Below, piece after piece: positions 10 to 14,303 of a stretch of DNA of 14,303 bases. This stretch comes from Gammaproteobacteria bacterium (lineage in GTDB: Bacteria; Pseudomonadota; Gammaproteobacteria; Enterobacterales; GCA-002770795): NCBI GenBank assembly GCA_003696665.1, contig RFGJ01000511.1, positions 1 through 14,303 on the forward strand, given 5' to 3'. A model generated the notes under the pieces. It had not been told where the DNA came from. It made no database searches and was given only the letters and a program-made list of their open reading frames with translations. The number at the start of each line of letters is the position of its first letter. Positions within the stretch are counted from its first letter, which is position 1. Made by a program: the position numbers and the translations under genes.

Positions 10-1674
10 TTATTTCTTCGTTTTAGACGGCTCATTCAATTTAAACAGCTGGGCCAAATTGGACGCGCCGCCGAGGATGGCCGCCGCCGCATTCAAAGAA
101 CCCTTGCTCTCGCCACCCACATAAATCACGGGCACCTTGACGATGTCCGGGTTGGCTTTGGCGACCTCCAAGAACTCTTTGAGCATCTGCAACTGCATAA
201 CGCGATCTTCACCCAAAACACGGGCCTGCGCTTTCTGACCTTCGGCAATTTGCATCAACTTAAGTTTCTCACCCTCGCCCTCTAATTTGAGCTTGTCGCG
301 GTTATGTTTGGCCGCTTCCTTGGCGATTTCAGCCGCCACCAGCACCGCTTGTTGATCAGCTGTCGCTTTTTCACGTTCGCGCGCGATACGCTCTTTTTGA
401 GCTTCTCGTTCACGCGCGTAGGTGGCTTTCAATTGGTTGGCGAGTTGTTCTCGCAAGGTGGCGACCATCAGCTCAGGGGGAATGGCCGGCTCTCCTAAAC
501 GCACTTCCATTAACGTGACACCCGCCTTGGCCGCTTCGACGCGCAAATGACTTTCTAAGCGTTTGGCAATACCATCGCGATTGTTCACGAAATCGAGTAC
601 TTTGGACGTCCCGCCGATGGTGCGCAACATATCGCGGATCAAAGGCGTAATGACTTTATCCTTGACCTCATTGATGCCACCGATGCCAGCGACAATACGC
701 GGGGCGCTGGCTGGCTCGACATAAGCGAGCACGCGCACTTCGACCGGTACCGTCCAGCCTTCCACTCGGACATTAATGGCCGGTCCGGCTGCGGTATCCG
801 GCACATCCACGCTTTCTTCGACGAAAGACTGGTGAATCTTGCCATCTTCGCCCACTTCCAGTTTAACGTCCCGCTTTGTATAACCGCCCTTGTATGTCCA
901 CACTTGCGCTCTGGTCGGCACAATGGTCGGTTTGTATGCAATCGGGTTAATGTAATGAATTCCCGTCGTCAACACGGTGTCCCAAACTCCAGGACAGCCC
1001 TTGGGAACCAACGGCACGACAAACGGACTGTCATCGCTGGCTTTTACCTTGGATGTGTCCGGACAATCATCGCGTTCCTTCACTGCTGAACGAATGACAG
1101 CCACCTGTCCAGCTTCGACCACCAACGCTGGCTTGAGTTGATACTTGAACAAATAATGATTGAAACGGTAGCGGCCCGGTGGCAAAACTGTAAGCTGTGG
1201 TCCCTTCTGGCCGCGTCCTTCGGTCAGGAAATAGGTCGCATCCAACATTTCCATTTTCTTGTCTTCTGGCCAGGCATCCGCGAACACCTGACCTGGGCGT
1301 AACATGGCGCCATCACGCGCGTGCAACAATAAGACATTATTGGGTGGCACTTCGACCACCGGCTTCATTTCAATGTCATAAATCACTCGCCCAAAAGGAA
1401 TAAAGTGATACCCAGGGCCAAGGATCTCGGCCTGAGGGCCTTTTTGTCCCGCCAAACCGATGATACGCCCCTCAGGTAAATCGCTCGCAAAATAAATTCG
1501 TTTCAGGTGGCCAACCTCATCTTCGCCTACCCAAACGGAAGACATGGTCACCAGCACAACACTCGCGCCCACAAACGCCAGTGCACTCACCATGATGCGC
1601 CGAATGCCCGCCAAATTTTTCAGGGCAAACAACCCAAACAGCACCAAAACCACGAATAAAATAAGAAAAATCAT
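10..1674 (-). CDS. Flotillin-like SPFH/band-7 family inner-membrane protein (YqiK-like), 554 aa
   Basis: Complete ORF with TAA stop at 10-12. The start ATG (1672-1674) lies 6 nt downstream of a GGAGG Shine-Dalgarno. There is an N-terminal hydrophobic helix (MIFLILFVVLVLFGLFAL). Two SPFH-like beta-rich segments are present (GYHFIPFGRVIYDIEMKPV; VPVEVRVLAYVEP; EVKDKVITPLIRDMLRTIGG). A long Ala/Glu/Lys/Arg-rich coiled-coil region (ATYAREREAQKERIAREREKATADQQAVLVAAEIAKEAAKHNRDKLKLEGE) and a C-terminal ...PDIVKVPVIYVGG tail are typical of the flotillin C-terminus. Length matches E. coli YqiK (553 aa). Family assignment is from motif recognition only. Confidence 0.7.
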   Translation of the reverse strand: MIFLILFVVLVLFGLFALKNLAGIRRIMVSALAFVGASVVLVTMSSVWVGEDEVGHLKRIYFASDLPEGRIIGLAGQKGPQAEILGPGYHFIPFGRVIYDIEMKPVVEVPPNNVLLLHARDGAMLRPGQVFADAWPEDKKMEMLDATYFLTEGRGQKGPQLTVLPPGRYRFNHYLFKYQLKPALVVEAGQVAVIRSAVKERDDCPDTSKVKASDDSPFVVPLVPKGCPGVWDTVLTTGIHYINPIAYKPTIVPTRAQVWTYKGGYTKRDVKLEVGEDGKIHQSFVEESVDVPDTAAGPAINVRVEGWTVPVEVRVLAYVEPASAPRIVAGIGGINEVKDKVITPLIRDMLRTIGGTSKVLDFVNNRDGIAKRLESHLRVEAAKAGVTLMEVRLGEPAIPPELMVATLREQLANQLKATYAREREAQKERIAREREKATADQQAVLVAAEIAKEAAKHNRDKLKLEGEGEKLKLMQIAEGQKAQARVLGEDRVMQLQMLKEFLEVAKANPDIVKVPVIYVGGESKGSLNAAAAILGGASNLAQLFKLNEPSKTKK

Positions 1675-1711: not shown

Positions 1712-3358
1712 CTACTGACCAATCCGACACGCAGCAGTTACATCCAAGTCGCTATCATATACGTCAGTTTCAATAGACATAAGGCCAAGCAGACTGTGGG
1801 ACACAACATCATGTGTCAGCCGTCGTTTTATCGATTGGGCAAGACATTGACGCGATACACCATGAATCCGTTGGAACGACTCGGATAACCACCAAATCAT
1901 TGGCACCCGTTTTTGTTCGTCAGGCGCCATAAAATAGGGTAATCCATGTAAATACACACCATTCTCACCAAGTGACTCCCCATGATCGGAGACATAAAAC
2001 ACCATGCTCGGTCGATTGGGATAATTTTGTTCAACCCACTCGATCACTTTATTGATAAAAAAATCGGTATAAAGAATTGTGTTGTCGTATGCATTCACGA
2101 CCGCCTGTTGCGAGCACTTCTCCAGTTGATTGGTGCGACATTCAGGCTGAAACTTCGCAAAGTTGGGCGGGTAGCGCCGATAGTAGGAAGGACCGTGACT
2201 GCCAATGGTATGCAAAACAATCAATGTTGGGGCATTGGCCTGATTGATCCAGTCAGACAAACCATTCAATAACACTTCATCATAACAACTTGTGGCAGAG
2301 CATTTGTCCCGGGTGCCAAATTCCTTGTAATTCTGAAATGCAACCCGATCACAAATATGTTTACAACCAGTGGAATTATCCCGCCACAAAACGCGGTAAC
2401 CGGCTCGCTTGGCGACGTCCAACACATTTTCTTGATATCGCGCGGTCTCAACGTCAAACTGGTCACGCGTCAGAAAACCGAACATACATGGCAAAGAATG
2501 CGCTGTATCAGTACCACACGACCAGACATCGTCAAAATTGATGAGGCTGTTCTGTCGCATTGTCAATTCTGGGTTGGTCTGGCGCGCATAGCCATTCAGC
2601 GAGAAATGATCACGCCGGGCAGTTTCGCCGGCGATAAAGACAATCAGTGGCGGTTGTTCATCCGACCAGCGTTTGTCCAGCGCGACATTTTTAGCCACCT
2701 GCTTAAACACTGGGGGATGCCTGAACTTCTCTTGCCAGTAGCGCGCGGTGTAATACACCACATTGGTTGGCGTGGCCATAAAGCGAATTTCTTTATGATT
2801 GCGAAATAGCGAAGAGATGCCATCGAATTGGACCATGATCGCAAGCACCATTGCCACGAGCCCCCAAGCCGTCCCGAACACGCTGCTCAGCCAAGGCCTT
2901 TTTCCCCAAGACAGGTCAAGGCGCCAAATCCCCCAAACCGGCAACACGAAGGTCACAAGCGCCCACCACAGCATATTGAGGTTGAGCAAATCCAAGGCTT
3001 CACGCTGATCCGTCTCGAACACGTTCCGAATCATGGCTTGATCGATGACAACATGGTAATGGGCCATGAAATAGGCCACCGACGCAGCCAGCAAGGTGAG
3101 TAATGAGCTCCAGACCTTAAACAAGCCTGGCCATGAACCAAGCGCCAACAGCAAGCGAAAAGTGCCCCACAATATCACCGCGAACGCGAAAACGCTGCCC
3201 CAGGCCACTCCTCGTGCCAGGCCAATCTGGTAAAGATGTTGCCACAAGGTCGTGTTAAAGACTGTCAACCAGTAAAGCGCAATAACATGCGCTAAATTGA
3301 TTGGGTTACGTAACCACTGGTGCAGCTTTTGTGCGATCTCTGTCGTTGACATAGCCAT
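1712..3358 (-). CDS. eptA: Phosphoethanolamine--lipid A transferase, EptA/PmrC (MCR) family, about 548 aa
   Basis: Strong colinear similarity to E. coli EptA and the MCR-1 sulfatase-like catalytic domain: GETARRDHFSLNGYARQTNPEL, SCGTDTAHSLPCMF (catalytic Thr nucleophile context), LIVLHTIGSHGPSYYRRYPP, YDNTILYTD, VSDHGESLGENGVYLHGLPYFMAPDEQKRVPMIWWLSE. The N-terminal about 200 aa has several hydrophobic helices, as in EptA. The six-frame ORF extends to 3463, but the first 35 codons overlap the lpd 3' end. The ATG at 3356-3358 (MAMSTTEIAQ...) gives the family-typical length of about 548 aa. Whether this is the eptA, eptC or an mcr-like subfamily member cannot be decided by eye. Confidence 0.88.
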   Translation of the reverse strand: MAMSTTEIAQKLHQWLRNPINLAHVIALYWLTVFNTTLWQHLYQIGLARGVAWGSVFAFAVILWGTFRLLLALGSWPGLFKVWSSLLTLLAASVAYFMAHYHVVIDQAMIRNVFETDQREALDLLNLNMLWWALVTFVLPVWGIWRLDLSWGKRPWLSSVFGTAWGLVAMVLAIMVQFDGISSLFRNHKEIRFMATPTNVVYYTARYWQEKFRHPPVFKQVAKNVALDKRWSDEQPPLIVFIAGETARRDHFSLNGYARQTNPELTMRQNSLINFDDVWSCGTDTAHSLPCMFGFLTRDQFDVETARYQENVLDVAKRAGYRVLWRDNSTGCKHICDRVAFQNYKEFGTRDKCSATSCYDEVLLNGLSDWINQANAPTLIVLHTIGSHGPSYYRRYPPNFAKFQPECRTNQLEKCSQQAVVNAYDNTILYTDFFINKVIEWVEQNYPNRPSMVFYVSDHGESLGENGVYLHGLPYFMAPDEQKRVPMIWWLSESFQRIHGVSRQCLAQSIKRRLTHDVVSHSLLGLMSIETDVYDSDLDVTAACRIGQ

Positions 3359-3373
3359 ATTCCAGAATGAATA

Positions 3374-3391
3374 GGGCGGCCTAAGCCGCCC
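3374..3391 (-). terminator. GC-rich stem-loop (GGGCGGC-CTAA-GCCGCCC) between lpd stop and eptA start; candidate intrinsic terminator or attenuator for the PDH operon
   Basis: Perfect 7-bp GC stem (3374-3380 pairs with 3385-3391) with a 4-nt loop. It lies 17 nt after the lpd TAA (3408-3410) on the minus strand. The following RNA is UAUUCAUUCUGGAA, which is only moderately U-rich, and the hairpin ends about 15 nt before the eptA ATG. Confidence 0.4.
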
Positions 3392-3407
3392 AATCGTAAT
3401 GTCTCGC

Positions 3408-4826
3408 TTACTTTTTGCGTTTCGGTGGCAAGTCAGTACAAGTGCCTTCAAAAAACTCGGCACAAAGTCCGACCGATTCAGAGAGGGTCGGGTGAGGATG
3501 GATGGTCAATGCAAGGTCTTCGGCATCACAGCCCATCTCCACCGCCAAGGCAATTTCAGAAATCATCTCGCCAGCATTGATGCCAACGATGGCGCCGCCA
3601 AGCACACGATGTGTTTTGGCATCAAAAATCAGCTTGGTGAAGCCTTCTGTGCGTGAGACGCCAATGGCACGTCCGCTGGCAGTCCATGGGAACTTGGCTG
3701 TCTCAATGGCAATGCCTTTCTCTTTGGCTTCTTTTTCGGTGATGCCAACCCATGCCACCTCCGGATCCGTATAAGCAACCGACGGAATCACGAGAGGTTC
3801 AAAGAAGTGCTTCTTACCGGCAATCACTTCTGCGGCGACATGGGCTTCGTGTGTCGCTTTGTGCGCCAGCATTGGCTGACCAACAATATCACCAATGGCA
3901 AAAATATGCGGCACATTGGTTCGCATTTGTTTGTCTACCGGAATGAAGCCACGCTCGTCAACCTGCACACCCGCCTTGTCGGCATCAATCAGATCGCCAT
4001 TCGGACGGCGCCCAACTGCAGACAAAATCTTGTCATAGCGCTGCGGTTCACTGGGAGCATTTTTGCCTTCGAAAGTCACCCAAAGGCCATCTTTCTTGGC
4101 TTCCACCTTGGTGACCTGAGTCGAGAGCATAATCGCTTCATATTTCTTGCTGATGTACTTGTGCAGCACATTGACCACGTCTTTGTCGGCTGCCGGGATT
4201 AACTGATCTGCCATTTCGACAACCGAGATCTGGCTGCCAAGCGCGTTATACACAGTCGCCATTTCCAGTCCAATAATGCCCCCGCCAAGACACAGCATTC
4301 TCTGTGGTACATCCTTGAGCTCCAACGCAGTGGTCGAATTGAGGACACGCTCATCTTTCGGCAGGAACGGCAATTCCACTATCCGAGAGCCGGCCGCAAT
4401 AATGGCATAGTCAAAACGAATGGTCGTCTTGCTGCCATCTTCGGCTTCGACCACTAAAGTGTGGTCATCGGCAAAACGACCATAGCCCTGGACAACTTGC
4501 ACTTTGCGCATCTTGGCCATCGCCGACAAGCCGCCGGTTAACTGCTTGATAACGCCTTCCTTATAGGCCCGGATCTTGTCAATATCGATCTTGGGCACAC
4601 CAAAATTGACGCCATGTGCGCCCATCTCGGCCGCTTCGTCAATCACCTTGGCAACATGCAACAGCGCTTTTGACGGGATACAACCGACATTCAAACATAC
4701 ACCACCCAAGGTCGCATAGCGCTCAACAAGCACCGTATTGAGGCCCAAATCTGCCGCACGAAATGCCGCAGAATAACCTCCAGGCCCAGCGCCCAACACC
4801 ACAACCTGTGTCTTAATTTCGCTCAT
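3408..4826 (-). CDS. lpdA: Dihydrolipoyl dehydrogenase (E3 component of pyruvate/2-oxoglutarate dehydrogenase complexes), 472 aa
   Basis: N-terminal FAD-binding fingerprint VVVLGAGPGGYSAAFRAADLG. Redox-active disulfide motif GGVCLNVGCIPSK. NAD-binding GGGIIGLEMA. C-terminal HPHPTLSESVGLCAEFFEG matches the E. coli Lpd C-terminus. SD AAGGGG sits 6-7 nt before the ATG at 4824-4826. It follows aceE-aceF as in the enterobacterial PDH operon. Confidence 0.96.
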   Translation of the reverse strand: MSEIKTQVVVLGAGPGGYSAAFRAADLGLNTVLVERYATLGGVCLNVGCIPSKALLHVAKVIDEAAEMGAHGVNFGVPKIDIDKIRAYKEGVIKQLTGGLSAMAKMRKVQVVQGYGRFADDHTLVVEAEDGSKTTIRFDYAIIAAGSRIVELPFLPKDERVLNSTTALELKDVPQRMLCLGGGIIGLEMATVYNALGSQISVVEMADQLIPAADKDVVNVLHKYISKKYEAIMLSTQVTKVEAKKDGLWVTFEGKNAPSEPQRYDKILSAVGRRPNGDLIDADKAGVQVDERGFIPVDKQMRTNVPHIFAIGDIVGQPMLAHKATHEAHVAAEVIAGKKHFFEPLVIPSVAYTDPEVAWVGITEKEAKEKGIAIETAKFPWTASGRAIGVSRTEGFTKLIFDAKTHRVLGGAIVGINAGEMISEIALAVEMGCDAEDLALTIHPHPTLSESVGLCAEFFEGTCTDLPPKRKK

Positions 4827-6531: not shown

Positions 6532-9210
6532 TTAAACAGTGGCCGGATTAGGTTTGTCCGGATCAATGCCGTACTTCTTAATGGCGGCACTCACTGTCTT
6601 GCGCTCAATATCGCCTTGCTGCGCCAAGGCCGAGAGGGCGGCCACCGTAATATAGTACCGATCAACTTCAAAGAAACGGCGCAAATTCGCTCTCGAATCG
6701 CTTCGACCAAAGCCGTCTGTGCCAAGTGTAATGTAGGTGCCTGGCACCCAAGGACGAATCTGGTCAGCAAAAATCTTCATGTAATCGGTCGATGCCACCA
6801 CTGGGCCACCCCAGCGCTTCAAACATTTCTGCACATAGGCCTCACGCGGCCGGGATTCTGGGTGCAACATGTTCCAGCGATCTGTTTCCAAGCCTTCGCG
6901 CCGCAATTCTGTAAATGAGGTGACGCTCCATACGTTTGAAATAATGCCCCAGTCTTGCGCCAACAACTCAGCCGCGGCCAAACATTCGCGCAAGATGGTG
7001 CCGCTGCCAAGCAACTGAACCATCTCACCTTTTTTGGGTTTCCGCTTTTGCGTCCAACCCTGTTTGAGCAGGTACATCCCTTTAATAATCCCTTCTTCAG
7101 CCCCCTCGGGCATTTCCGGATGGGGGTAGTTTTCATTCATCGTCGTGATGTAATAAAACACGTTTTCCTGCTCTTTCACCATGCGTCGCAATCCCTCGCG
7201 TATGATCACGGCGAGCTCATAGCCATAAGTTGGGTCATAGGACACACAGTTCGGAATGGTTGATGACAGTACATGGCTATGACCGTCCTGATGTTGCAGA
7301 CCCTCCCCGTTAAGGGTGGTTCTCCCGGCCGTTGCCCCGATCAGAAAACCGCGCGCCTGAATATCGCCAGCAGCCCAGGCCAAATCACCAACGCGCTGGA
7401 AACCAAACATGGAGTAAAACACATAGAAGGGAATCATCGGCAAGTTATTGTTTGAATAGCTTGTCGCCGCCGCTATCCAAGATGACATGGCGCCAGCTTC
7501 ATTGATGCCCTCTTCAAGTATTTGTCCCTTCTTATCTTCTCGGTAATACATCAATTGATCAGCGTCCACCGGCCGGTAAAGCTGGCCAACCGAGGAATAA
7601 ATGCCATACTGCCGGAACATGCCCTCCATGCCAAAAGTGCGTGCCTCATCCGGAACGATGGGCACAACGTTGGCCCCGATATTCTTATCCTTCATGAGGG
7701 TGTTGATAATTCGAACCAGCGCCATCGTGGTGGACATTTCTCGGTCACCCGAACCTTTATAGAGCGCCTCGAAGGCATCACTCGGTGGCACACCCAACGA
7801 AATGCTGCGCCGACGGCGACTCGGCAGATAACCACCGAGCGCGGCGCGGCGCTCGCGCAAATATTCGAGTTCTGGACTATTTTCTGCGGGCTTGTAATAA
7901 GGCACTTCAGCTAGCTGACTATCGGGAATTGGCACATCGAAACGATCACGGAAGTAACGGATCGCCTCCATGTCGAGCTTCTTCACTTGGTGGGCAATAT
8001 TTTTCCCCTCGCCGCTCGGGCCCATACCATAGCCCTTCACGGTTTTGGCCAAAATTACAGTCGGCTGTCCCTTGTGATGAACGGCCGCATGGTAAGCGTT
8101 ATACACCTTGTGCGGATCATGCCCCCCACGGTTCAAGCGCCAAATGTCTTCATCTGACATATTGGCAACCATTTCTTTAAGTTCAGGATACTTACCAAAG
8201 AAATGCTCGCGCGTGTATGCCCCACCTTTCGCTTTACAGTTCTGATATTCGCCATCGACCGTTTCTTCCATGACTTTGAGCAGTAGCCCTTTGGTGTCCC
8301 TTGCAATCAGCGGGTCCCAGTATCGCCCCCAGATCACCTTGATGACATTCCAGCCAGCACCGCGGAAATCTGCTTCCAATTCCTGAATAATTTTTCCGTT
8401 ACCGCGTACGGGGCCGTCAAGCCGCTGAAGATTACAATTGATGACAAAGGTCAAATTATCCAGTTGCTCACGGCCGGCGAGTGAAATGGCGCCGAGAGAT
8501 TCCGGCTCATCCATTTCGCCATCACCCATAAATGCCCAAACACGGCGATTAGTTGTGTCAGCCAATCCACGGTTATGCAAATATTTCAGAAAACGTGCCT
8601 GATAAATCGCTTGGATCGGCCCCAAACCCATCGATACCGTTGGAAATTGCCAGAAATCTGGCATCAACCAAGGATGCGGGTATGAACTTAACCCCTTGCC
8701 GTCCACTTCTTGACGGAAATTATCTAATTGTTCCGCGGTCAACCGTCCTTCGAGAAAGGCGCGTGCATAAATTCCAGGGGCGGAATGCCCCTGAATATAG
8801 ACAAGATCGCCACCATGTTTTTCGTTAGCGGCATGGAAGAAGTGATTAAACCCGACGTCGTACAAAGTGGCTGCCGAAGCAAAGCTCGAAATATGTCCAC
8901 CAAGCTCAAGATTCTTTTTACTGGCTCTAACCACCATCGCCATGGCGTTCCAACGGATAATCGAGCGCAATCGGCGCTCCATGGCCTGATCACCTGGCAT
9001 CGCCACCTCTTGGGACGGAGTGATGGTGTTCAAATAGGCCGTGGTCATTTTATACGGCAAATACGCGCCGGAACGCCGCGCCTTATCGATAAGTTTTTCA
9101 AGTAAAAAATGAGCGCGTTCAGGCCCCTCTCGTTCAAGCACTGCCTCCATGGCATCCAGCCATTCGCTGGTTTCAATCGGGTCAATATCAGTTTGCTGAT
9201 CAATGCTCAT
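6532..9210 (-). CDS. aceE: Pyruvate dehydrogenase E1 component (homodimeric AceE type), about 892 aa
   Basis: N-terminus MSIDQQTDIDPIETSEWLDAMEAVLEREGPERAHFLLEKLIDKARR is colinear with E. coli AceE (MSERFPNDVDPIETRDWLQAIESV...), and the length of about 890 aa fits. The ORF track begins at a GTG (9229-9231). The ATG at 9208-9210, preceded by AGGGGGAA with 6-nt spacing, is the better-supported start. Confidence 0.94.
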   Translation of the reverse strand: MSIDQQTDIDPIETSEWLDAMEAVLEREGPERAHFLLEKLIDKARRSGAYLPYKMTTAYLNTITPSQEVAMPGDQAMERRLRSIIRWNAMAMVVRASKKNLELGGHISSFASAATLYDVGFNHFFHAANEKHGGDLVYIQGHSAPGIYARAFLEGRLTAEQLDNFRQEVDGKGLSSYPHPWLMPDFWQFPTVSMGLGPIQAIYQARFLKYLHNRGLADTTNRRVWAFMGDGEMDEPESLGAISLAGREQLDNLTFVINCNLQRLDGPVRGNGKIIQELEADFRGAGWNVIKVIWGRYWDPLIARDTKGLLLKVMEETVDGEYQNCKAKGGAYTREHFFGKYPELKEMVANMSDEDIWRLNRGGHDPHKVYNAYHAAVHHKGQPTVILAKTVKGYGMGPSGEGKNIAHQVKKLDMEAIRYFRDRFDVPIPDSQLAEVPYYKPAENSPELEYLRERRAALGGYLPSRRRRSISLGVPPSDAFEALYKGSGDREMSTTMALVRIINTLMKDKNIGANVVPIVPDEARTFGMEGMFRQYGIYSSVGQLYRPVDADQLMYYREDKKGQILEEGINEAGAMSSWIAAATSYSNNNLPMIPFYVFYSMFGFQRVGDLAWAAGDIQARGFLIGATAGRTTLNGEGLQHQDGHSHVLSSTIPNCVSYDPTYGYELAVIIREGLRRMVKEQENVFYYITTMNENYPHPEMPEGAEEGIIKGMYLLKQGWTQKRKPKKGEMVQLLGSGTILRECLAAAELLAQDWGIISNVWSVTSFTELRREGLETDRWNMLHPESRPREAYVQKCLKRWGGPVVASTDYMKIFADQIRPWVPGTYITLGTDGFGRSDSRANLRRFFEVDRYYITVAALSALAQQGDIERKTVSAAIKKYGIDPDKPNPATV

Positions 9211-9346
9211 GCGGTTCCCCCTGTTCACCACAGGCCAATGCCTACAGAAAGTGTAGTGCCGAATTCGAATTTGTCAGATCTGGCAATCGTGACAGCTCGG
9301 CCCGTTGACAAAATTGGGCACAGGATAACAGGTGGACTGGCGACAA

Positions 9347-9360
9347 CAGGTCTGACCAGG
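9347..9360 (-). promoter_or_regulatory. PdhR/FadR-type (GntR family) operator-like palindrome CAGGTC-T-GACCAG (core GGT-N3-ACC) in the aceE upstream region
   Basis: Near-perfect 13-bp palindrome with a perfect GGTCNGACC core. It fits the T-GGT-nnn-ACC-A architecture of the E. coli PdhR box (AATTGGTAAGACCAATT). It lies immediately downstream of a candidate sigma70 promoter, the same relative position as the PdhR box in the E. coli pdh promoter. A partial copy (ACAGGTGGACTGG) sits 18 bp further downstream at 9328-9340. Confidence 0.35.
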
Positions 9361-9375
9361 CTATTTTGCTTTATT

Positions 9376-9404
9376 TTTATATAGCATCTAGAAAATGGAC
9401 ACAA
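9376..9404 (-). promoter_or_regulatory. Candidate sigma70 promoter for aceE-aceF-lpd (-35 TTGTGT at 9399-9404, 17-nt spacer, -10 TATAAA at 9376-9381), overlapping the ampE stop codon
   Basis: Minus-strand read is TTGTGT-CCATTTTCTAGATGCTA-TATAAA, followed by an A/T-rich tract and the PdhR-like palindrome about 15-30 nt downstream. Hexamers were picked by eye. The implied 5' leader is about 160 nt and contains a 10-bp perfect palindrome AATTCGAATT (9262-9271). Confidence 0.3.
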
Positions 9405-10101
9405 ACGCCAGAATCACAAGCAAGGCTAACAGTGCGCGACGGTTGAGGGCAGAACGCTGTATCTGCTGTTCAGGCGCAGTCAGTTCGTCCCACAGCGGTT
9501 CAAGCGCCGCGATACTTCCACGTTCGACCAATTCTTCAGCCTCACCATCACGAGGCAACGCCAATCCTTTTGCCATCAAAAAATGCATGCAAGTATGGAA
9601 ATTTCCTACTAAGGCATAACTGATGACGACGACTCGCGCTGGCACCCACAAAACCCACGGAATCACGACTTCCGACACCTGAGTCCAAACCGCCTGACTT
9701 TGACGTGTTAACAACAAACGTACAGAAACAAGCCCCAAAATACCAAATACCCCATAAAAGAAGACACAGCTGACCAAACGAAGCACTTGTGCCGTATCCA
9801 TGTCCTCGTCAAAGCCAATCGGCCCCAGTGCCACCGTCAATACCAACACATGAAGAAGCAGCAGCGCCAATAAATGGTTTCCAGAAATTATTTTGACCAA
9901 TGCGGCCACCACGACCGCCGTACCCAAAATTGTCAGGCTCCAGCCAGCAACGCCTCGCCCCCATGATTTTTGCGCTAACCCTTGCCAGCAATAGTCAACC
10001 CAGCGTTCCCACAACTCAACCACCTGTTCGGCCAATTGAGGATATGCCTGTTGCCACCAATAAATGGCGAGCGTGGCAAAAACCAATGCGACAAAAGTCA
10101 T
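9388..10101 (-). CDS. ampE: AmpE-like inner-membrane protein (ampD operon partner), 237 aa
   Basis: Polytopic hydrophobic protein located directly downstream of ampD, as in the E. coli ampDE operon. The C-terminal region (PARVVVISYALVGNFHTCMHFLMAKGL) resembles E. coli AmpE ([32 protein letters not shown]). SD AAGGGGTGA precedes the ATG at 10099-10101. It is shorter than E. coli AmpE (284 aa). Confidence 0.72.
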   Translation of the reverse strand: MTFVALVFATLAIYWWQQAYPQLAEQVVELWERWVDYCWQGLAQKSWGRGVAGWSLTILGTAVVVAALVKIISGNHLLALLLLHVLVLTVALGPIGFDEDMDTAQVLRLVSCVFFYGVFGILGLVSVRLLLTRQSQAVWTQVSEVVIPWVLWVPARVVVISYALVGNFHTCMHFLMAKGLALPRDGEAEELVERGSIAALEPLWDELTAPEQQIQRSALNRRALLALLVILAFVSIF

Positions 10102-10190
10102 TGTTCACCCCTTACCTCTATTATCTGTTGCTTATTGGAACACGACAGCGCAACGCAAACAAGATGCGGACGAGAATTGGGACATGGCGG

Positions 10191-10820
10191 TTACTTTCGG
10201 CAAATCTGCCTGAGGTAATATGGCCAATCGAAAAAAGGCCCTGGATCCGTCTTCCGGCCCGGTGCAATGTCGCTGTGGCCTACGATACGTTCCGGCACGA
10301 CCATCTCGTATCGACGCATTATGGCCTTGGTCAACGCCACCAGTGCGTCGTACTGCACCGACTCAAAAGGTGCGTCATCGGTGCCCTCAAGCTCGATACC
10401 AACCGATCGGCTGTTACAGTCTGGATGACCAAGGTAGGTCGATTCCCCAGCATGCCACGCCCGATCTAACGTGCTGACAAATTGGACGACCTCGCCATTT
10501 CGACGAATAAAAAAATGAGACGATACACGCAAGTCCTTTATTTCTACAAAATATGGATGCGCACTCTCATTCAGAGTGCCGAGAAAAAATTGCTCAACAA
10601 AGGGGGTGAGATAATGCCGTGGTGGCAAGCTAATGCAATGAATGACCACCATATCAACAAGACCTGTCATGCGCACATTAAAATGCGGGGAGGGCACATG
10701 TCTCGCCCCTTGGCACCAACCATCTTCTTTTATGGTGAAACCAACCTGCCTTTCCAAGTCACGTTGACCAAGTCTATGTGTATTCTTCACTTTTTGACTT
10801 AAGTGCCCGGAGGTTAGCAA
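10191..10820 (-). CDS. ampD: 1,6-anhydro-N-acetylmuramoyl-L-alanine amidase AmpD (zinc amidase_2 family)
   Basis: Colinear with E. coli AmpD: GWCQGARHVPSPHF vs GWLVGARRVPSPHY; VVIHCISLPP (zinc-ligand His); AHPYFVEIKDLRVSSHFFIRRNGEVVQFV; RAWHAGES; IGIELEGTD; GHSDIAPGRKTDPGPFFDW (second His and Asp zinc ligands). The start codon is uncertain. The six-frame ORF opens at a TTG (10818-10820), and there is no in-frame ATG upstream of the conserved N-terminus. Alternatives are a GTG at 10788-10790 and a TTG at 10755-10757. None has a convincing SD. The 5' end overlaps or abuts the stop (10774-10776) of the upstream 805-aa gene. Confidence 0.85.
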   Translation of the reverse strand: MLTSGHLSQKVKNTHRLGQRDLERQVGFTIKEDGWCQGARHVPSPHFNVRMTGLVDMVVIHCISLPPRHYLTPFVEQFFLGTLNESAHPYFVEIKDLRVSSHFFIRRNGEVVQFVSTLDRAWHAGESTYLGHPDCNSRSVGIELEGTDDAPFESVQYDALVALTKAIMRRYEMVVPERIVGHSDIAPGRKTDPGPFFDWPYYLRQICRK

Positions 10821-13191
10821 TGACTGACTCTAACGCACGGTCAAATAAGGCGCCATCTTCCAGCGGACGCATTTCGCCTCTGCGCATGGCAATGGCAAGC
10901 CCGGCTCTGGTGTAATCAGCGACCTTGGTTCCGGTTCGACTGACGAAAACATAGCGATCCACAGTTGGGATAATGGCAGCAAGTTTGCACCGTGTTTTGT
11001 TGCCGTCTCGGGTCATTTCAAACCATGTTCCGGACCGCAACAAATCGACCTCCATGAGATATTTATCGTCCTCTGGCAGGCTCGCAACCTCACCCGTCAT
11101 ACCCTCAATGTCCGACAGTTCAATTTCTTCAACGACAGCGTCACCTGAAGGCAAATCATCCTCTGAGGTCGATTCGCTCAACGTTGTCGCCACAGTTTCC
11201 GGTGCGTGTTCAAGGTCGTGGTCGAGAATTTCTTCAACGCTTTCCATTCTCTTCAAATCTTGTCCAAGCCCGGCCTCTCTGTCAGTTTCAACATTCCTGT
11301 GATCTGCCTCCTGGTCTGCCAACCTTTCCCCACCTTCACTCTTCGGCGCACTTGTTTGCGACTTAACTGGCGCAAGGTCTTCGCCTTTAAGCACCCTTAA
11401 GTGCAATTTTTCGAGCTGATGCAATAGTTCTTCTGACTCAAGCTGGCCAAAAGAGGCAGCCTCTAGACCGGAGCGTATTTTTTGAATGAGGTGCGGCAGT
11501 CGAGCGGTGAGCGTTTTTCGCCCTTCTAAACTTTGTGGCGGTGTGAGCGACATCAACAGATCCTGGACAACGGCGACGGCCTGTGACCAATGCGCACTGT
11601 CCGGCCCTTCCTTCAGATACGCCAAGAAAAGCACATTTTTCCAACCATTGAACAGCAACCGACGAACAGCCTCGGGCAATTCCCGACCGGCGATGCACTC
11701 ATGGAGTGTCCGCATGACTTCACGCTTGGCCAACTCTGCTTTAGCCCGGCCTTCCTCGGCTTGTTTTGTCCGTTCTTCAATTCGTTTCGCTCGGCGCTCG
11801 AGCTCATCCATGAAAGCCCGAAATTCCTCTAGTAACTCTTCGAAGATAGACGTATCGTCATCGAACTCTTCAAGAATCCGATTGACAATAGCCTCCATTT
11901 TTGGTTTCAGTCCGCCGTTTTGGCCAGCTCGGGCAGGATCCCAGCCAAGCCCCGCTTGTGCCATTTCATTCAGTAATTTCCGCGCGGGGTGGTTGGATTT
12001 TGAGAAAAACGTCTTGTCGATAATGGCGACCTTAAGCATCGGGATCTGGAGGCGACCGATGATGGCTTTCATCTCATCGGGCAGGTTCTTATCGCCAAGA
12101 ATAAATTCAAACAGCATGGCGATGACGTCAATGACATCTTCATTGACCTGACCGAGTGCGACTGGTTGACCACCCGAAACTGTCGGAAGCACTTGACCGA
12201 TTTGCTGCCTTAGTGCCTGTGGTGACGTAATGACTGGCGCCTGTGCTTGTACCGAACCTAGTGCGCTAACCAGCGTATCGGCGTCAATCGCAACGTTTTG
12301 CGATGTCTGTGAATTACCCACCGGACTATTCTCGGATGACATCCCAGCCGAGCGACGAGCCACCGTCAATAGTTCGTGCAATGCCTCAAGGATCTCGCTG
12401 CTTTCGTGCCCCTCACCACCGGCATCGTTCGTAACGTGCCGGGCTCTATCGGATGAGCCTTTAGACGACCTATGTGATTGGCGACGTTGTGGTGCGGCCA
12501 TCGCCAAGTCCGGCAAGATTCCATGTTGGGCAAGATATTCGTTGAGTTCGGCGTACAAATCACCAAGCGTGACCATCACCATACGTTCGAAAAGTTTATA
12601 GACCACTAATTTCGCACGGATCTCAAGCTCAAGACAGCTCGCCGCTTGTCGAAACGCATTGGCGATGGCCACTGGATCGACAGGATTATTCTCTTGCGTG
12701 ACTGGGATATGAGTGACAACCGCATCCATACGACGCGTCAACGCTTCTAACTGTTCTTTACAATCAGCGCGCACTTTTTTGACCATGTTTTCCACGGCCA
12801 AATCTTCTTCAAGCTGTTCCTCCTGAACCAGCTGTAACTGGTCGACCCTGATTCTTTCAAGGTTGTTGTCTTGAGTGGCTTCCGTGTCGGAATGCGTCGT
12901 CAATTCGTCAAACTTTTCCTCAAGCCGTCGGCGAAATGCACTTTCGACTGCCTTTCGTTTAATACGAAGGGCGCGCATAGAGTCAAAGTATTGGGTTTGA
13001 TCTTTGTCGTTACCGGCACGTTCCGCCAAATCAAACAGGTGGTCATCTGCGCCACTAAGCATACGTGCCAGACTATCCATCAAATAGGCGACGGCCTTAT
13101 CTCTTACTTGTATTAACAACTTGGGTAGACTCCTAGACCTAGTCGAAACAAACTGCGTATCCTTATCCGTAATAAACGATTGACGCTTCAT
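10774..13191 (-). CDS. Large (805 aa) acidic, coiled-coil-rich conserved hypothetical protein, possibly DUF1631-like; function unknown
   Basis: Uninterrupted 2.4-kb ORF with ATG at 13189-13191 and a GGTGA SD-like sequence 5 nt upstream. The N-terminal block is LPKLLIQVRDKAVAYLMDSLARMLSGADDHLFDLAERAGNDKDQTQYFDSMRALRIKRKAVESAFRRRLEEKF. A Ser/Gln/Gly-rich, probably disordered segment runs roughly aa 230-330. A conserved-looking core reads GRLQIPMLKVAIIDKTFFSKSNHPARKLLNEMAQAGLGW. Long Glu/Arg/Lys coiled-coil stretches follow (ELERRAKRIEERTKQAEEGRAKAELAKREV). There is a very acidic segment (SESTSEDDLPSGDAVVEEIELSDIEG) and a compact C-terminal domain (WFEMTRDGNKTRCKLAAIIPTVDRYVFVSRTGTKVADYTRAGLAIAMRRGE). 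No signal peptide or TM helices are evident. The DUF1631 assignment is from memory of that family's HPAR...LLN core and is not verified. Confidence 0.8.
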   Translation of the reverse strand: MKRQSFITDKDTQFVSTRSRSLPKLLIQVRDKAVAYLMDSLARMLSGADDHLFDLAERAGNDKDQTQYFDSMRALRIKRKAVESAFRRRLEEKFDELTTHSDTEATQDNNLERIRVDQLQLVQEEQLEEDLAVENMVKKVRADCKEQLEALTRRMDAVVTHIPVTQENNPVDPVAIANAFRQAASCLELEIRAKLVVYKLFERMVMVTLGDLYAELNEYLAQHGILPDLAMAAPQRRQSHRSSKGSSDRARHVTNDAGGEGHESSEILEALHELLTVARRSAGMSSENSPVGNSQTSQNVAIDADTLVSALGSVQAQAPVITSPQALRQQIGQVLPTVSGGQPVALGQVNEDVIDVIAMLFEFILGDKNLPDEMKAIIGRLQIPMLKVAIIDKTFFSKSNHPARKLLNEMAQAGLGWDPARAGQNGGLKPKMEAIVNRILEEFDDDTSIFEELLEEFRAFMDELERRAKRIEERTKQAEEGRAKAELAKREVMRTLHECIAGRELPEAVRRLLFNGWKNVLFLAYLKEGPDSAHWSQAVAVVQDLLMSLTPPQSLEGRKTLTARLPHLIQKIRSGLEAASFGQLESEELLHQLEKLHLRVLKGEDLAPVKSQTSAPKSEGGERLADQEADHRNVETDREAGLGQDLKRMESVEEILDHDLEHAPETVATTLSESTSEDDLPSGDAVVEEIELSDIEGMTGEVASLPEDDKYLMEVDLLRSGTWFEMTRDGNKTRCKLAAIIPTVDRYVFVSRTGTKVADYTRAGLAIAMRRGEMRPLEDGALFDRALESVIANLRALKSKSEEYT

Positions 13192-13258
13192 GATATCACC
13201 GCTTGTGATCGCCTGGCCAGATGAAGAACCTTCACTTTCTCAAAATTGTAAAGATAAA

Positions 13259-13283
13259 ACAGTGACCGTGTTAACAGTTACCG
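13259..13283. promoter_or_regulatory. Imperfect 10-bp direct repeat ACAGTGACCG / ACAGTTACCG around a TGTTAACA palindrome in the divergent intergenic region between the 805-aa gene and nadC; candidate regulator-binding site
   Basis: The sequence aaACAGTGACCG-TGTTA-ACAGTTACCGggg is seen directly. It lies 76-100 bp upstream of the nadC ATG and 68-92 bp upstream of the 805-aa gene ATG. A TATGAT -10-like hexamer sits at about 13320-13325 on the plus strand. Confidence 0.25.
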
Positions 13284-13358
13284 GGGCATGGTGGCGCTTC
13301 CAAACTTGAATAAAGCCCAGTATGATTGCGCCATACTGTTCATGTGAAGACTTCGACT

Positions 13359-14243
13359 ATGCACCCCAAATTGACTGCCAAATTGCGTCGCTATGACTGG
13401 CCAAAAATTATTTCTGAAAACGTCCATATTGCCCTGCAAGAGGATCTTGGTCCAGATACTATTGATGTGACCGCGCAACTCATTGATGAGCATGCTGAAT
13501 TTACGGCCGATCTTTGGGTGCGCGAATATTGTCGCCTGGCAGGTCAAGACTGGTTTACTGAAAGTTTTCGACAAGTGAGCGAGGCTGTCTGCGTCGAATG
13601 GTATTATCAAGACGGAGATGACATACCGGCCAATTCCCATGTTGCTACCGTCACAGGTCCAGCTCGCGCGATTCTCACGGCTGAACGAACGGCAATCAAT
13701 TTTCTACAAACCCTTTCCGGCACGGCGACCCGGACGGCCAATTGGCAGAAAAAAATCGCACAACAGCATACGGTACTCCTCGATACTCGAAAAACTATCC
13801 CAGGCTTGCGATTTGCACAGAAATACGCGGTATTTTGCGGTGGCGGACAAAATCACCGAATTGGGCTTTTCGATCAATTTCTGATCAAGGAAAACCACAT
13901 CGCCGCCGCCGGAAGCATTGTCAAAGCCATAGACAAAGCCAGAAAACTCGCACCCACACTTAAAGTCGAGGTCGAAGTGGAGAATTGGGAGGAGTTTCAG
14001 GCAGCGGTGGAAGGAAAAGCAGACATTATCATGCTCGATAATTTTACACTTGACGACATCAGGCGCGCTATCCACTGGCTTTCAGAGCAGGACATCACGC
14101 CCCGTCCAATGCTCGAAGCGTCCGGGAACATCAGCGAAGACAATCTTGCCGATTATGCAGCAACAGGTGTGGATTACATATCGAGCGGAGCATTAACCAA
14201 GTCAGTCTCTGCCATTGACTTTTCGTTGCGTTATCGCACGTAA
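13359..14243 (+). CDS. nadC: Nicotinate-nucleotide pyrophosphorylase [carboxylating] (quinolinate phosphoribosyltransferase), about 294 aa
   Basis: Colinear with E. coli NadC: ALQEDLGPD...DVTAQLI; GPARAILTAERTAINFLQTLSG; LLDTRKTIPGLRFAQKYAVFCGGGQNHRIGLFDQFLIKENHI; EVEVENWEEF; ADIIMLDNF; LEASGNI; GVDYISSGALTKSV. The ORF track opens at a TTG (13326). The first ATG at 13359 gives the family-typical length. TAA stop at 14241-14243. It is divergent from ampD as in E. coli and Vibrio. Confidence 0.92.
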   Translation: MHPKLTAKLRRYDWPKIISENVHIALQEDLGPDTIDVTAQLIDEHAEFTADLWVREYCRLAGQDWFTESFRQVSEAVCVEWYYQDGDDIPANSHVATVTGPARAILTAERTAINFLQTLSGTATRTANWQKKIAQQHTVLLDTRKTIPGLRFAQKYAVFCGGGQNHRIGLFDQFLIKENHIAAAGSIVKAIDKARKLAPTLKVEVEVENWEEFQAAVEGKADIIMLDNFTLDDIRRAIHWLSEQDITPRPMLEASGNISEDNLADYAATGVDYISSGALTKSVSAIDFSLRYRT

Positions 14244-14303
14244 GACCGTCATTGCGTTCACGAAAACGCGAGGAAAGGCAGCACCAATTCACCAACAGAA
14301 ATA

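Follow-up and report, generated by a model that had tools for sequence, protein, structure and literature searches.

The 14,303-nucleotide contig RFGJ01000511.1 (assembly GCA_003696665.1; the whole stretch is called the window here) contains, between nadC and ampD, a gene for an 805-residue protein of the DUF1631 family. The family profile is matched over its full length and 43 of 44 family-conserved positions are kept, and the gene is therefore, as judged from its sequence, an intact and ordinary member of a large, already catalogued family: typical in its features, divergent in its sequence, and derived from an uncultured gammaproteobacterium. Family membership, architecture, conservation, synteny and the junction with ampD were all computed here. 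As to function, we lean, with about even confidence, towards a non-enzymatic cytoplasmic regulator or adaptor of the switch between motile and sessile life (biofilm and extracellular polysaccharide, EPS) that is linked to cyclic diguanylate (c-di-GMP), the probable operon with ampD being a product of ancestral gene position.

Family membership and conservation

The gene was defined from the list of open reading frames and their translations, the match to Pfam PF07793 and an identical NCBI protein:

10774..13191 (including the stop), minus strand: gene of the DUF1631-family protein

The reading frame opens with ATG, closes with TAG at 10776-10774 and encodes 805 amino acids. The product is acidic (isoelectric point, pI, of 5.13 from composition) and has neither a transmembrane helix nor a signal peptide: the Kyte-Doolittle mean over 19 residues peaks at 1.19, and the N-terminus lacks a hydrophobic core. 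All of this agrees with the first-pass annotation of this DNA, which had been made from the letters alone. That annotation had also offered an assignment to DUF1631, to be checked against Pfam, and the check bears it out. PF07793 covers residues 19-794 of the protein, corresponding to profile positions 3-741 of 741, with 751.9 bits (E=1.2e-225) against a gathering threshold of 33.7 bits. The N-terminal, central and C-terminal blocks each match the profile separately, with 222, 356 and 111 bits, respectively. Newer Pfam releases subdivide the family into PF26671 (DUF1631_2nd), PF26672 (DUF1631_3rd) and PF26670 (DUF1631_C), which are precomputed on the identical NCBI protein, and these names tell nothing about function.

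The family is large. When 1.84 billion cluster representatives (clusters at 50% identity) were searched with a profile, 9,219 of them matched at E≤1e-3, of which 4,404 reached E≤1e-30. Nearly all have a length of 720-970 residues and are matched end to end. By annotation, DUF1631 proteins occur in Pseudomonadaceae, Cellvibrionaceae, Chromatiales, Sedimenticola, sulfur-oxidising symbionts, Xanthomonadales and Rhodanobacteraceae, and the betaproteobacterium Jeongeupia is reported to carry a DUF1631 gene. The closest relative of the window protein is metagenomic and shares 52% identity (locus L089), and homologues from Pseudomonas and Stutzerimonas share ∼40% identity across 97% of its length.

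Conservation was computed on an alignment of 149 divergent DUF1631 members, in which 44 positions are conserved at 95% or more. The sole exception in the window protein is S751, where the family has asparagine. The two stretches singled out in the first-pass annotation as conserved in appearance are indeed so. The block DDHLFDLAERAG...YFDSMRALR spans residues 49-76 and includes D49, D50, F53, M72, R73 and R76 at this level of conservation, and the core HPARKLLNEMAQAGLGW spans residues 401-417 and includes H401, A403, R404, L406 and N408. In its full-length match, three-block architecture, invariant residues and genomic position the window protein is thus like DUF1631 as Pfam defines it, and it differs in nothing essential beyond belonging to a divergent branch and carrying the one serine for asparagine.

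The family includes PacR of Xanthomonas campestris, for which NCBIfam holds a model (NF058594; 752 profile positions). The window protein, homologous to PacR and of similar length, scores 300 bits against this model (E=4e-89) in three stretches, and the curated cutoff is 1200 bits. Ten further representatives of the family score 190-360 bits, none of them reaching the cutoff. Since these ten score like the window protein, PacR forms a separate clade, and by sequence the window protein is a PacR homologue that lies outside the PacR clade as NCBI delimits it.

The suggestion that the gene is an undescribed component does not hold. The identical sequence is already deposited and annotated in NCBI as 'MAG: DUF1631 domain-containing protein [Gammaproteobacteria bacterium]', where MAG denotes a metagenome-assembled genome; its subdomains are defined in Pfam; a PacR model exists in NCBIfam; and genetics on one member have been published (PMC9543026). 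Searches of the DUF1631 literature under alternative spellings and accession numbers found nothing.

Predicted architecture and the C-terminal barrel

A structure model was calculated with AlphaFold2 from a 25-sequence alignment. It contains three confident blocks, with predicted local distance difference test (pLDDT) scores of ∼90, separated by two linkers with pLDDT <50. The resulting segments, from the N-terminus to the C-terminus, are:

12526..13122, minus strand: N-terminal helical domain, residues 24-222; all-helical in the model, with the ADDxLFDLA...YFDxMRxLRxKR block
12151..12525, minus strand: linker 1, residues 223-347; rich in Ser, Gln and Gly, for the most part disordered, and containing three conserved helices, all short
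11389..12150, minus strand: central helical domain, residues 348-601 (DUF1631_2nd/3rd); all-helical, with RLQIPMLKV, HPARKLLNE and RTxxAEEGxAKAE; pLDDT 85-94
11065..11388, minus strand: linker 2, residues 602-709; disordered and highly acidic, pLDDT 29-48, unconserved in length and sequence
10783..11064, minus strand: C-terminal domain, residues 710-803 (DUF1631_C); predicted SH3/Tudor-like five-strand barrel with a long capping helix and the invariant LFDRALE

The first-pass annotation had described a disordered Ser/Gln-rich linker and a beta-containing C-terminal domain, and composition, pLDDT and the five-strand fold are all in accord with it. Residues 231-345 in linker 1 include 17 serines, 11 glutamines and 10 glycines. 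The pLDDT falls below 50 at residues 235-264 and 281-299, the helices are modelled at 262-281, 304-317 and 324-334, and the length of the linker differs among homologues. Linker 2 is more extreme in composition, the span 603-705 having a net charge of −22 and a pI of 4.05. The central domain is the most conserved part of the family (D367, R380, Q382, P384, D392, F395, F396, H401, R404, N408, R474, G481 and W517) and contains a confidently modelled, charged helix of 53 residues (448-500) that bears the conserved RTxxAEEGxAKAE. The description of multiple ER/K coiled-coil segments is borne out less well than it was put: the model has this one confident helix and, inside linker 2, one helix of low confidence.

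When modelled by itself, the C-terminal domain again gave an SH3/Tudor-like barrel (pLDDT 83.5; predicted template modelling score 0.68). One helix is inserted between strands 4 and 5, and the conserved C-terminal helix, 25 residues long and bearing LFDRALE, caps the barrel. Its structural matches, with the figures listed for them, are:

TraI translocation-signal domain, 7.6; Spindlin, 7.0; Tudor domains, about 6
FeoA, 5.7; CarD, 5.6; CdnL, 5.0
UvrD C-terminal domain bound to an RNA-polymerase lobe, 5.0; PcrA Tudor domain, 4.9; Mfd, 4.6

PilZ is absent from these matches. The resemblance is one of fold: identity to barrels such as those of TraI, Tudor proteins, CarD, Mfd and UvrD is only 8-19%, there is no Pfam match to them, and the helix between strands 4 and 5 and the conserved helical cap set the DUF1631 barrel apart. 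As modelled, the domain is a module of the type that binds proteins and nucleic acids.

No solved structure specifically resembling the N-terminal or central helical domain was matched. Foldseek with the full model returned no PDB match at E≤1e-3, and a PDB sequence-profile search with the 25-sequence alignment returned none at E≤1. A Pfam scan of each domain at E≤10, in which PilZ, MshEN, the RNA-polymerase-interacting domain of CarD and enzyme domains were sought, gave DUF1631 only, the rest being noise. The c-di-GMP receptor and enzyme classes (PilZ, MshEN, the GGDEF I-site, EAL and HD-GYP) have no recognisable domain or motif in the protein, and no enzyme family in Pfam or NCBIfam matches it. 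Because it consists of three modules that include the barrel, and has no other Pfam domain, the protein resembles a binding or adaptor protein of modular build. As the first-pass annotation had stated, this architecture has no known biochemical function.

An origin of the N-terminal and central helical domains by duplication was considered and rejected (hhalign probability 0.2%). An LFDxA motif is shared by residues 49-59 (DDHLFDLAERA) and 780-790 (ALFDRALESVI), at an hhalign probability of 3%, which is not significant.

The model also bears on the name 'thymidine phosphorylase', which is attached in the source databases to several Pseudomonas homologues. The first-pass annotation had taken the name for a recurrent mis-annotation, and we agree. 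Pfam detects DUF1631 only, with no glycosyl-transferase-family-3 (Glycos_transf_3), PYNP or PYNP_C domain, the model, helical apart from a small barrel, does not show the enzyme's alpha/beta fold, and the PDB profile search is empty. With neither the domain nor the fold, this identity is effectively refuted, and we give it practically no chance.

What the homologues suggest about function

PacR is the only DUF1631 member with a knockout phenotype. Deletion of XC_3388, the X. campestris gene since renamed pacR, makes the cells hypermotile, lowers EPS, disturbs the biofilm and weakens virulence; on complementation the wild-type behaviour returns (PMC9543026). The mutant expresses flagellar and chemotaxis genes and many GGDEF genes more strongly, and EPS genes less strongly (PMC9543026). 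The phenotype is pleiotropic, including altered carbon-source use and lower expression of ribosomal-protein genes, and the authors, for whom structure prediction gave no clue, considered PacR a possible 'master regulator' (PMC9543026).

In Pseudomonas putida, PP_0788 is a direct target of FleQ, as established by electrophoretic mobility shift assay, one-hybrid assay and footprinting; high c-di-GMP represses the gene 11.8-fold, and mutation of fleQ derepresses it 6.4-fold (PMC8125075). The 15-nucleotide FleQ footprint of PP_0788, with up to two mismatches allowed, has eight matches in 1.1 Mb of loci, and seven of the eight lie in the intergenic region between nadC and the DUF1631 gene of Pseudomonas, where chance would give ∼0.001. 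PP_0788 is identified as a DUF1631 orthologue by this recurrence in seven Pseudomonas loci. The conserved element lies ∼100-220 nucleotides upstream of the DUF1631 match in L024, L050, L059, L064, L066, L075 and L077 and reads TATTTGACGTCAT(A/C)G; it contains the palindrome TGACGTCA and is unlike the published FleQ consensus GTCaNTAAAtTGAC.

Pseudomonas aeruginosa PA4523 adjoins ampD (PMC9782964). Its expression rises in mature biofilm and peaks at dispersal, as measured by RNA-seq, quantitative reverse-transcription PCR and a lacZ reporter (PMC13128677), and the gene appears in a table of the ciprofloxacin resistome (PMC8264665). A screen for strong constitutive promoters picked out the DUF1631 gene of Pseudomonas stutzeri as one of the highly expressed genes. 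PA4523 and PP_0788 occupy the same position as the window gene, divergent from nadC and followed by ampD and ampE, and share the ∼40% identity given above, as measured on close relatives.

We therefore propose, at the roughly even confidence stated at the outset, that the window protein, a soluble, acidic cytoplasmic protein built of three folded modules on two disordered linkers and with no recognisable catalytic fold, would serve as a regulator or adaptor in the network switching cells between the motile and sessile states under c-di-GMP control. It would bind partner proteins or a charged ligand through the Arg/Asp/His-rich central domain and the Tudor-like C-terminal domain. The link to c-di-GMP and lifestyle is drawn by analogy from papers on homologues of at most ∼40% identity, and we infer the adaptor-type action and any particular partner.

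Several points weigh against this proposal. The PacR authors themselves state that a part of the protein in c-di-GMP homeostasis lacks direct evidence (PMC9543026), and binding of c-di-GMP, a protein partner or nucleic acid has been demonstrated for no member of the family. In P. putida expression falls at high c-di-GMP, yet loss of the gene in Xanthomonas resembles a low-c-di-GMP state, so that no single simple picture emerges. The identity of ∼40% to the Pseudomonas proteins and the 300 of 1200 bits on the PacR model mean that the phenotypes are transferred across deep branches. The promoter of PP_0788 has FleQ sites, whereas the promoter region of the window gene contains neither a FleQ consensus box nor the PP_0788 footprint, the counts in the window being those expected by chance. 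Finally, the invariant D49, D50, D367, R380, D392, H401, R404, N408 and R474 are also compatible with an unrecognised enzymatic or ligand site.

The pleiotropy of the Xanthomonas mutant allows a different interpretation, in which the protein is structural, a cytoplasmic organiser for example, and unrelated to c-di-GMP, so that the effects on motility and EPS would be indirect results of general physiological stress. A large acidic protein with modules on disordered linkers would suit such a scaffold, and the changes in carbon-source use and ribosomal-protein expression (PMC9543026), together with the place of PA4523 in the ciprofloxacin resistome (PMC8264665), point the same way. However, three independent organisms link expression or mutant phenotype to the c-di-GMP/FleQ axis or to biofilm dispersal, and we regard a scaffold as unlikely.

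The barrel, in turn, raises the idea of a global regulator associated with RNA polymerase, in which the Tudor-like domain would dock on the beta subunit in the manner of CarD/CdnL, Mfd and UvrD/PcrA and the helical domains would modulate the motility and EPS regulons. This would fit the broad transcriptome change in the Xanthomonas mutant and the 'master regulator' proposed for PacR (PMC9543026), as well as the high expression of the P. stutzeri gene from the promoter screen. Pfam CarD_TRCF_RID does not match the 805-residue protein, though, which has no DNA-binding domain, and we rate this possibility as quite unlikely. A wider and more speculative proposal, which we consider improbable, is that DUF1631 represents a widespread class of cytoplasmic signalling adaptors. 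The central domain, by means of a binding site of a new type, would respond to a metabolite or a nucleotide second messenger, and the barrel would dock on a core machine, RNA polymerase for instance, to reprogramme motility and EPS genes; in the lineage of the window, translational coupling to AmpD would link the switch with cell-wall turnover.

Gene order at the nadC-ampD junction

The immediate surroundings of the gene comprise the following features:

13359..14243, plus strand: nadC, quinolinate phosphoribosyltransferase; reading frame opens at TTG 13326, first ATG at 13359 (TIGR00078, 300 bits, cutoff 198; Pfam QRPTase_N and QRPTase_C)
13192..13358, no strand assigned: intergenic region from which the DUF1631 gene and nadC diverge, from the sequence
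13245..13274, minus strand: sigma-70-like promoter candidate, TTAACA-18 nucleotides-TACAAT, ∼50 nucleotides upstream of the DUF1631 ATG (10 of 12 consensus matches)
10758..10773, minus strand: 16-nucleotide junction between the DUF1631 gene (TAG 10776-10774) and the likeliest ampD start (TTG 10757)
10191..10757 (longest reading frame to 10820), minus strand: ampD, 1,6-anhydro-N-acetylmuramyl-L-alanine amidase (NCBIfam AmpD equivalog, 252.6 bits, cutoff 143; Pfam Amidase_2)
9388..10101, minus strand: sequence-divergent ampE-like membrane protein gene, 237 amino acids (NCBIfam AmpE, 30 bits, cutoff 238; no Pfam match)

The first-pass annotation had placed the DUF1631 gene abutting or overlapping ampD by up to 47 nucleotides. 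The genes are indeed close, and no terminator-like site above chance lies between them, but the 47-nucleotide overlap requires a start at TTG 10820 (GTG 10790 would give an overlap of 17 nucleotides), and the N-terminus in an alignment with six AmpD orthologues favours TTG 10757 and hence the 16-nucleotide gap. In the closest relative, L089, the stop of the DUF1631 gene and the start of ampD overlap as TGATG. The TTAACA/TACAAT pair is the best promoter-like site in 9000-14303, although it is a consensus match only and the number of such sites equals the chance expectation. Because the gap is only 16 nucleotides, the genes share a strand and there is no terminator, co-transcription of the DUF1631 gene with ampD and the ampE-like gene is likely in this lineage, and translational coupling to ampD is possible. 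Expression would then proceed from the gene's own sigma-70-like promoter candidate onto a transcript shared with these two genes.

Gene order was compared across 80 genome loci, mostly from Pseudomonadaceae, with Permianibacter and Cellvibrionaceae. The neighbourhood count proposed in the first-pass annotation came out strongly positive: nadC is divergent from and upstream of the DUF1631 gene in all 80 loci, and ampD follows on the same strand in 62, the 18 loci without an adjacent ampD being mostly from Stutzerimonas. The order, with nadC divergent and ampD downstream, recurs in relatives of only 29-31% identity, and among the informative relatives' loci (those of ∼30% identity together with L089) 6 of 6 have nadC and 6 of 7 have ampD. 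L089 is collinear with the window, with the order zapD-coaE-pilDCB-pilA-pilA-nadC on one side and DUF1631-ampD-ampE-like-aceE-aceF-lpd-eptA on the other. Escherichia coli K-12 has zapD-coaE-guaC-hofCB-ppdD-nadC and ampD-ampE-aroP-pdhR-aceEF-lpd, with nadC and ampD divergent and no DUF1631 gene between them. The first-pass view of a gene wedged into a normally adjacent nadC-ampD pair therefore has to be reversed, in that the bare adjacency is the enterobacterial state and DUF1631 is the regular occupant of the site in Pseudomonadales and many other gammaproteobacteria. Horizontal insertion of the gene was likewise rejected, as GC content and skew are unremarkable over 10.5-13.5 kb and the locus is collinear with those of relatives. 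Rfam, tRNA and repeat scans of the window gave nothing relevant.

The orientation of the gene is less constant than its position. In two MAGs, one from Rhodanobacteraceae and one from Xanthomonadales, the DUF1631 gene precedes nadC on the same strand, in one case with a 1-nucleotide stop/start overlap, and no ampD was found within 5 kb. In Sedimenticola and a Lamellibrachia endosymbiont the DUF1631 gene is followed by FKBP and nadC on one strand, and ampD lies on the other side in the opposite direction, at the end of the series DUF1538, DUF1538, PII, CBS, ampD. Thus all four loci sampled from the Xanthomonadales/Sedimenticola branch have the gene in inverted orientation and coupled to nadC, which is adjacent or one gene away. 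On the PacR side the gene order comes from the sampled MAGs labelled Xanthomonadales and Rhodanobacteraceae, and it differs from that of the window in that the gene is co-oriented with nadC and not beside ampD. Given the four inverted loci and the 18 of 80 without an adjacent ampD, co-orientation or coupling with ampD is not conserved across the family, and the association with ampDE inferred in the first-pass annotation stands for this locus, with its short gap and lack of a terminator, but not as a family property. Even among 62 Pseudomonadales loci, a median of 150 nucleotides (range 26-809) separates the gene from ampD, against 16 in the window; scans of the DUF1631-ampD gaps of three Pseudomonas loci for promoters and terminators found none, a result of limited weight in GC-rich DNA. 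By comparison of these loci, the place between nadC and ampD is the ancestral position of DUF1631, and orientation, and with it the operon partner, differs between lineages.

Two features of these loci were noted in passing. Three relatives of ∼30% identity carry, between nadC and DUF1631 and co-oriented with nadC, a gene for a retropepsin-like aspartyl protease of 176-180 amino acids (Asp_protease_2/gag-asp_proteas; L081 3990-4520, L084 4163-4699, L087 4113-4655), which is absent from the window. In the Sedimenticola/Lamellibrachia pair (L093 1767-4613, L094 1896-4762) ampD stands behind DUF1538-DUF1538-PII-CBS in an apparent operon divergent from DUF1631, an unusual context for ampD, and in L093 an ampE-like gene follows it.

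Co-transcription with ampD could be read as a sign that the protein is an accessory of cell-wall recycling, acting with AmpD and AmpE in muropeptide recycling or beta-lactamase induction. The 16-nucleotide spacing without a terminator, the TGATG overlap in the closest relative and the same-strand ampD in 62 of 80 genome loci and in six of seven relatives' loci (five of ∼30% identity plus L089) all speak for such a role. The block as a whole, however, is an ancient assembly of unrelated genes (pil/hof, nadC, ampDE and pdh), which E. coli retains although it has no DUF1631 gene in it. Where ampD is missing within 5 kb (Rhodanobacteraceae and Xanthomonadales), the gene is coupled to nadC, ampD belongs to another operon on the opposite strand in Sedimenticola and the tubeworm symbiont, mostly Stutzerimonas loci account for the 18 that lack the adjacency, and the Pseudomonadales gaps reach 809 nucleotides. 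Moreover, the published phenotypes concern motility, EPS and biofilm and not the cell wall, and the protein is cytoplasmic with no peptidoglycan-related domain. It is mainly the flip in orientation and the loci without ampD that weaken the cell-wall reading, which we judge to be improbable.

By the same token nadC, the most persistent neighbour, might suggest a function connected with NadC or NAD metabolism, since it adjoins the gene in 80 of 80 genome loci and 6 of 6 informative relatives' loci and stays adjacent or one gene away in the four loci of the other branch, once with the stop/start overlap. Yet E. coli keeps nadC beside ampD with no DUF1631 gene, so that the neighbourhood seems to be a matter of inherited gene order, no domain for binding NAD or nucleotides was detected and no published phenotype points to NAD; this function is highly improbable. 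Adjacency inside the nadC/ampD block is weak evidence of shared function because the nadC, ampD, pilus and pdh genes are unrelated and yet syntenic from E. coli to the MAG of the window. The probable operon with ampD is a lineage-specific consequence of the ancestral nadC-ampD position and not a sign of a shared cell-wall function.

The relatives also have divergent proteins of 190-330 amino acids in the ampE position, with weak AmpE matches or none. The interval 9232-9387, between the ampE-like gene and aceE, contains no pdhR and no aroP, unlike E. coli, and only a weak promoter-like site (9277-9250). Downstream lie aceE, identified by Pfam, and aceF and lpd, identified from their translations and the collinear, Pfam-annotated L089, followed by two further genes:

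1712-3463, minus strand: EptA/MCR-like phosphoethanolamine--lipid A transferase gene, directly downstream of lpd (NF028537, 560 bits, cutoff 500)
10-1674, minus strand: SPFH/Band-7 domain protein, 554 amino acids; N-terminus hydrophobic, C-terminal half long, charged and probably coiled

The eptA-type protein falls below the cutoffs of all specific MCR models and of EptA. Its longest reading frame (from GTG 3463) overlaps lpd by 56 nucleotides and the family match starts near residue 50, and the true start is therefore probably an internal ATG. The same eptA-type gene occupies the same place in L089. The SPFH/Band-7 protein matches no NCBIfam model.

The window adds little new about the DUF1631 family itself, a large family with one strong, pleiotropic knockout, with no known biochemical activity, ligand or partner, and with helical domains that no solved structure resembles. 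What it does bring out is that the nadC-ampD position is inherited and that orientation flips between lineages, and for this reason operon context is unfit for assigning a cell-wall or NAD function to these proteins. The predicted SH3/Tudor-like interaction module at the C-terminus suggests instead that partner binding by DUF1631 is a concrete experimental lead.

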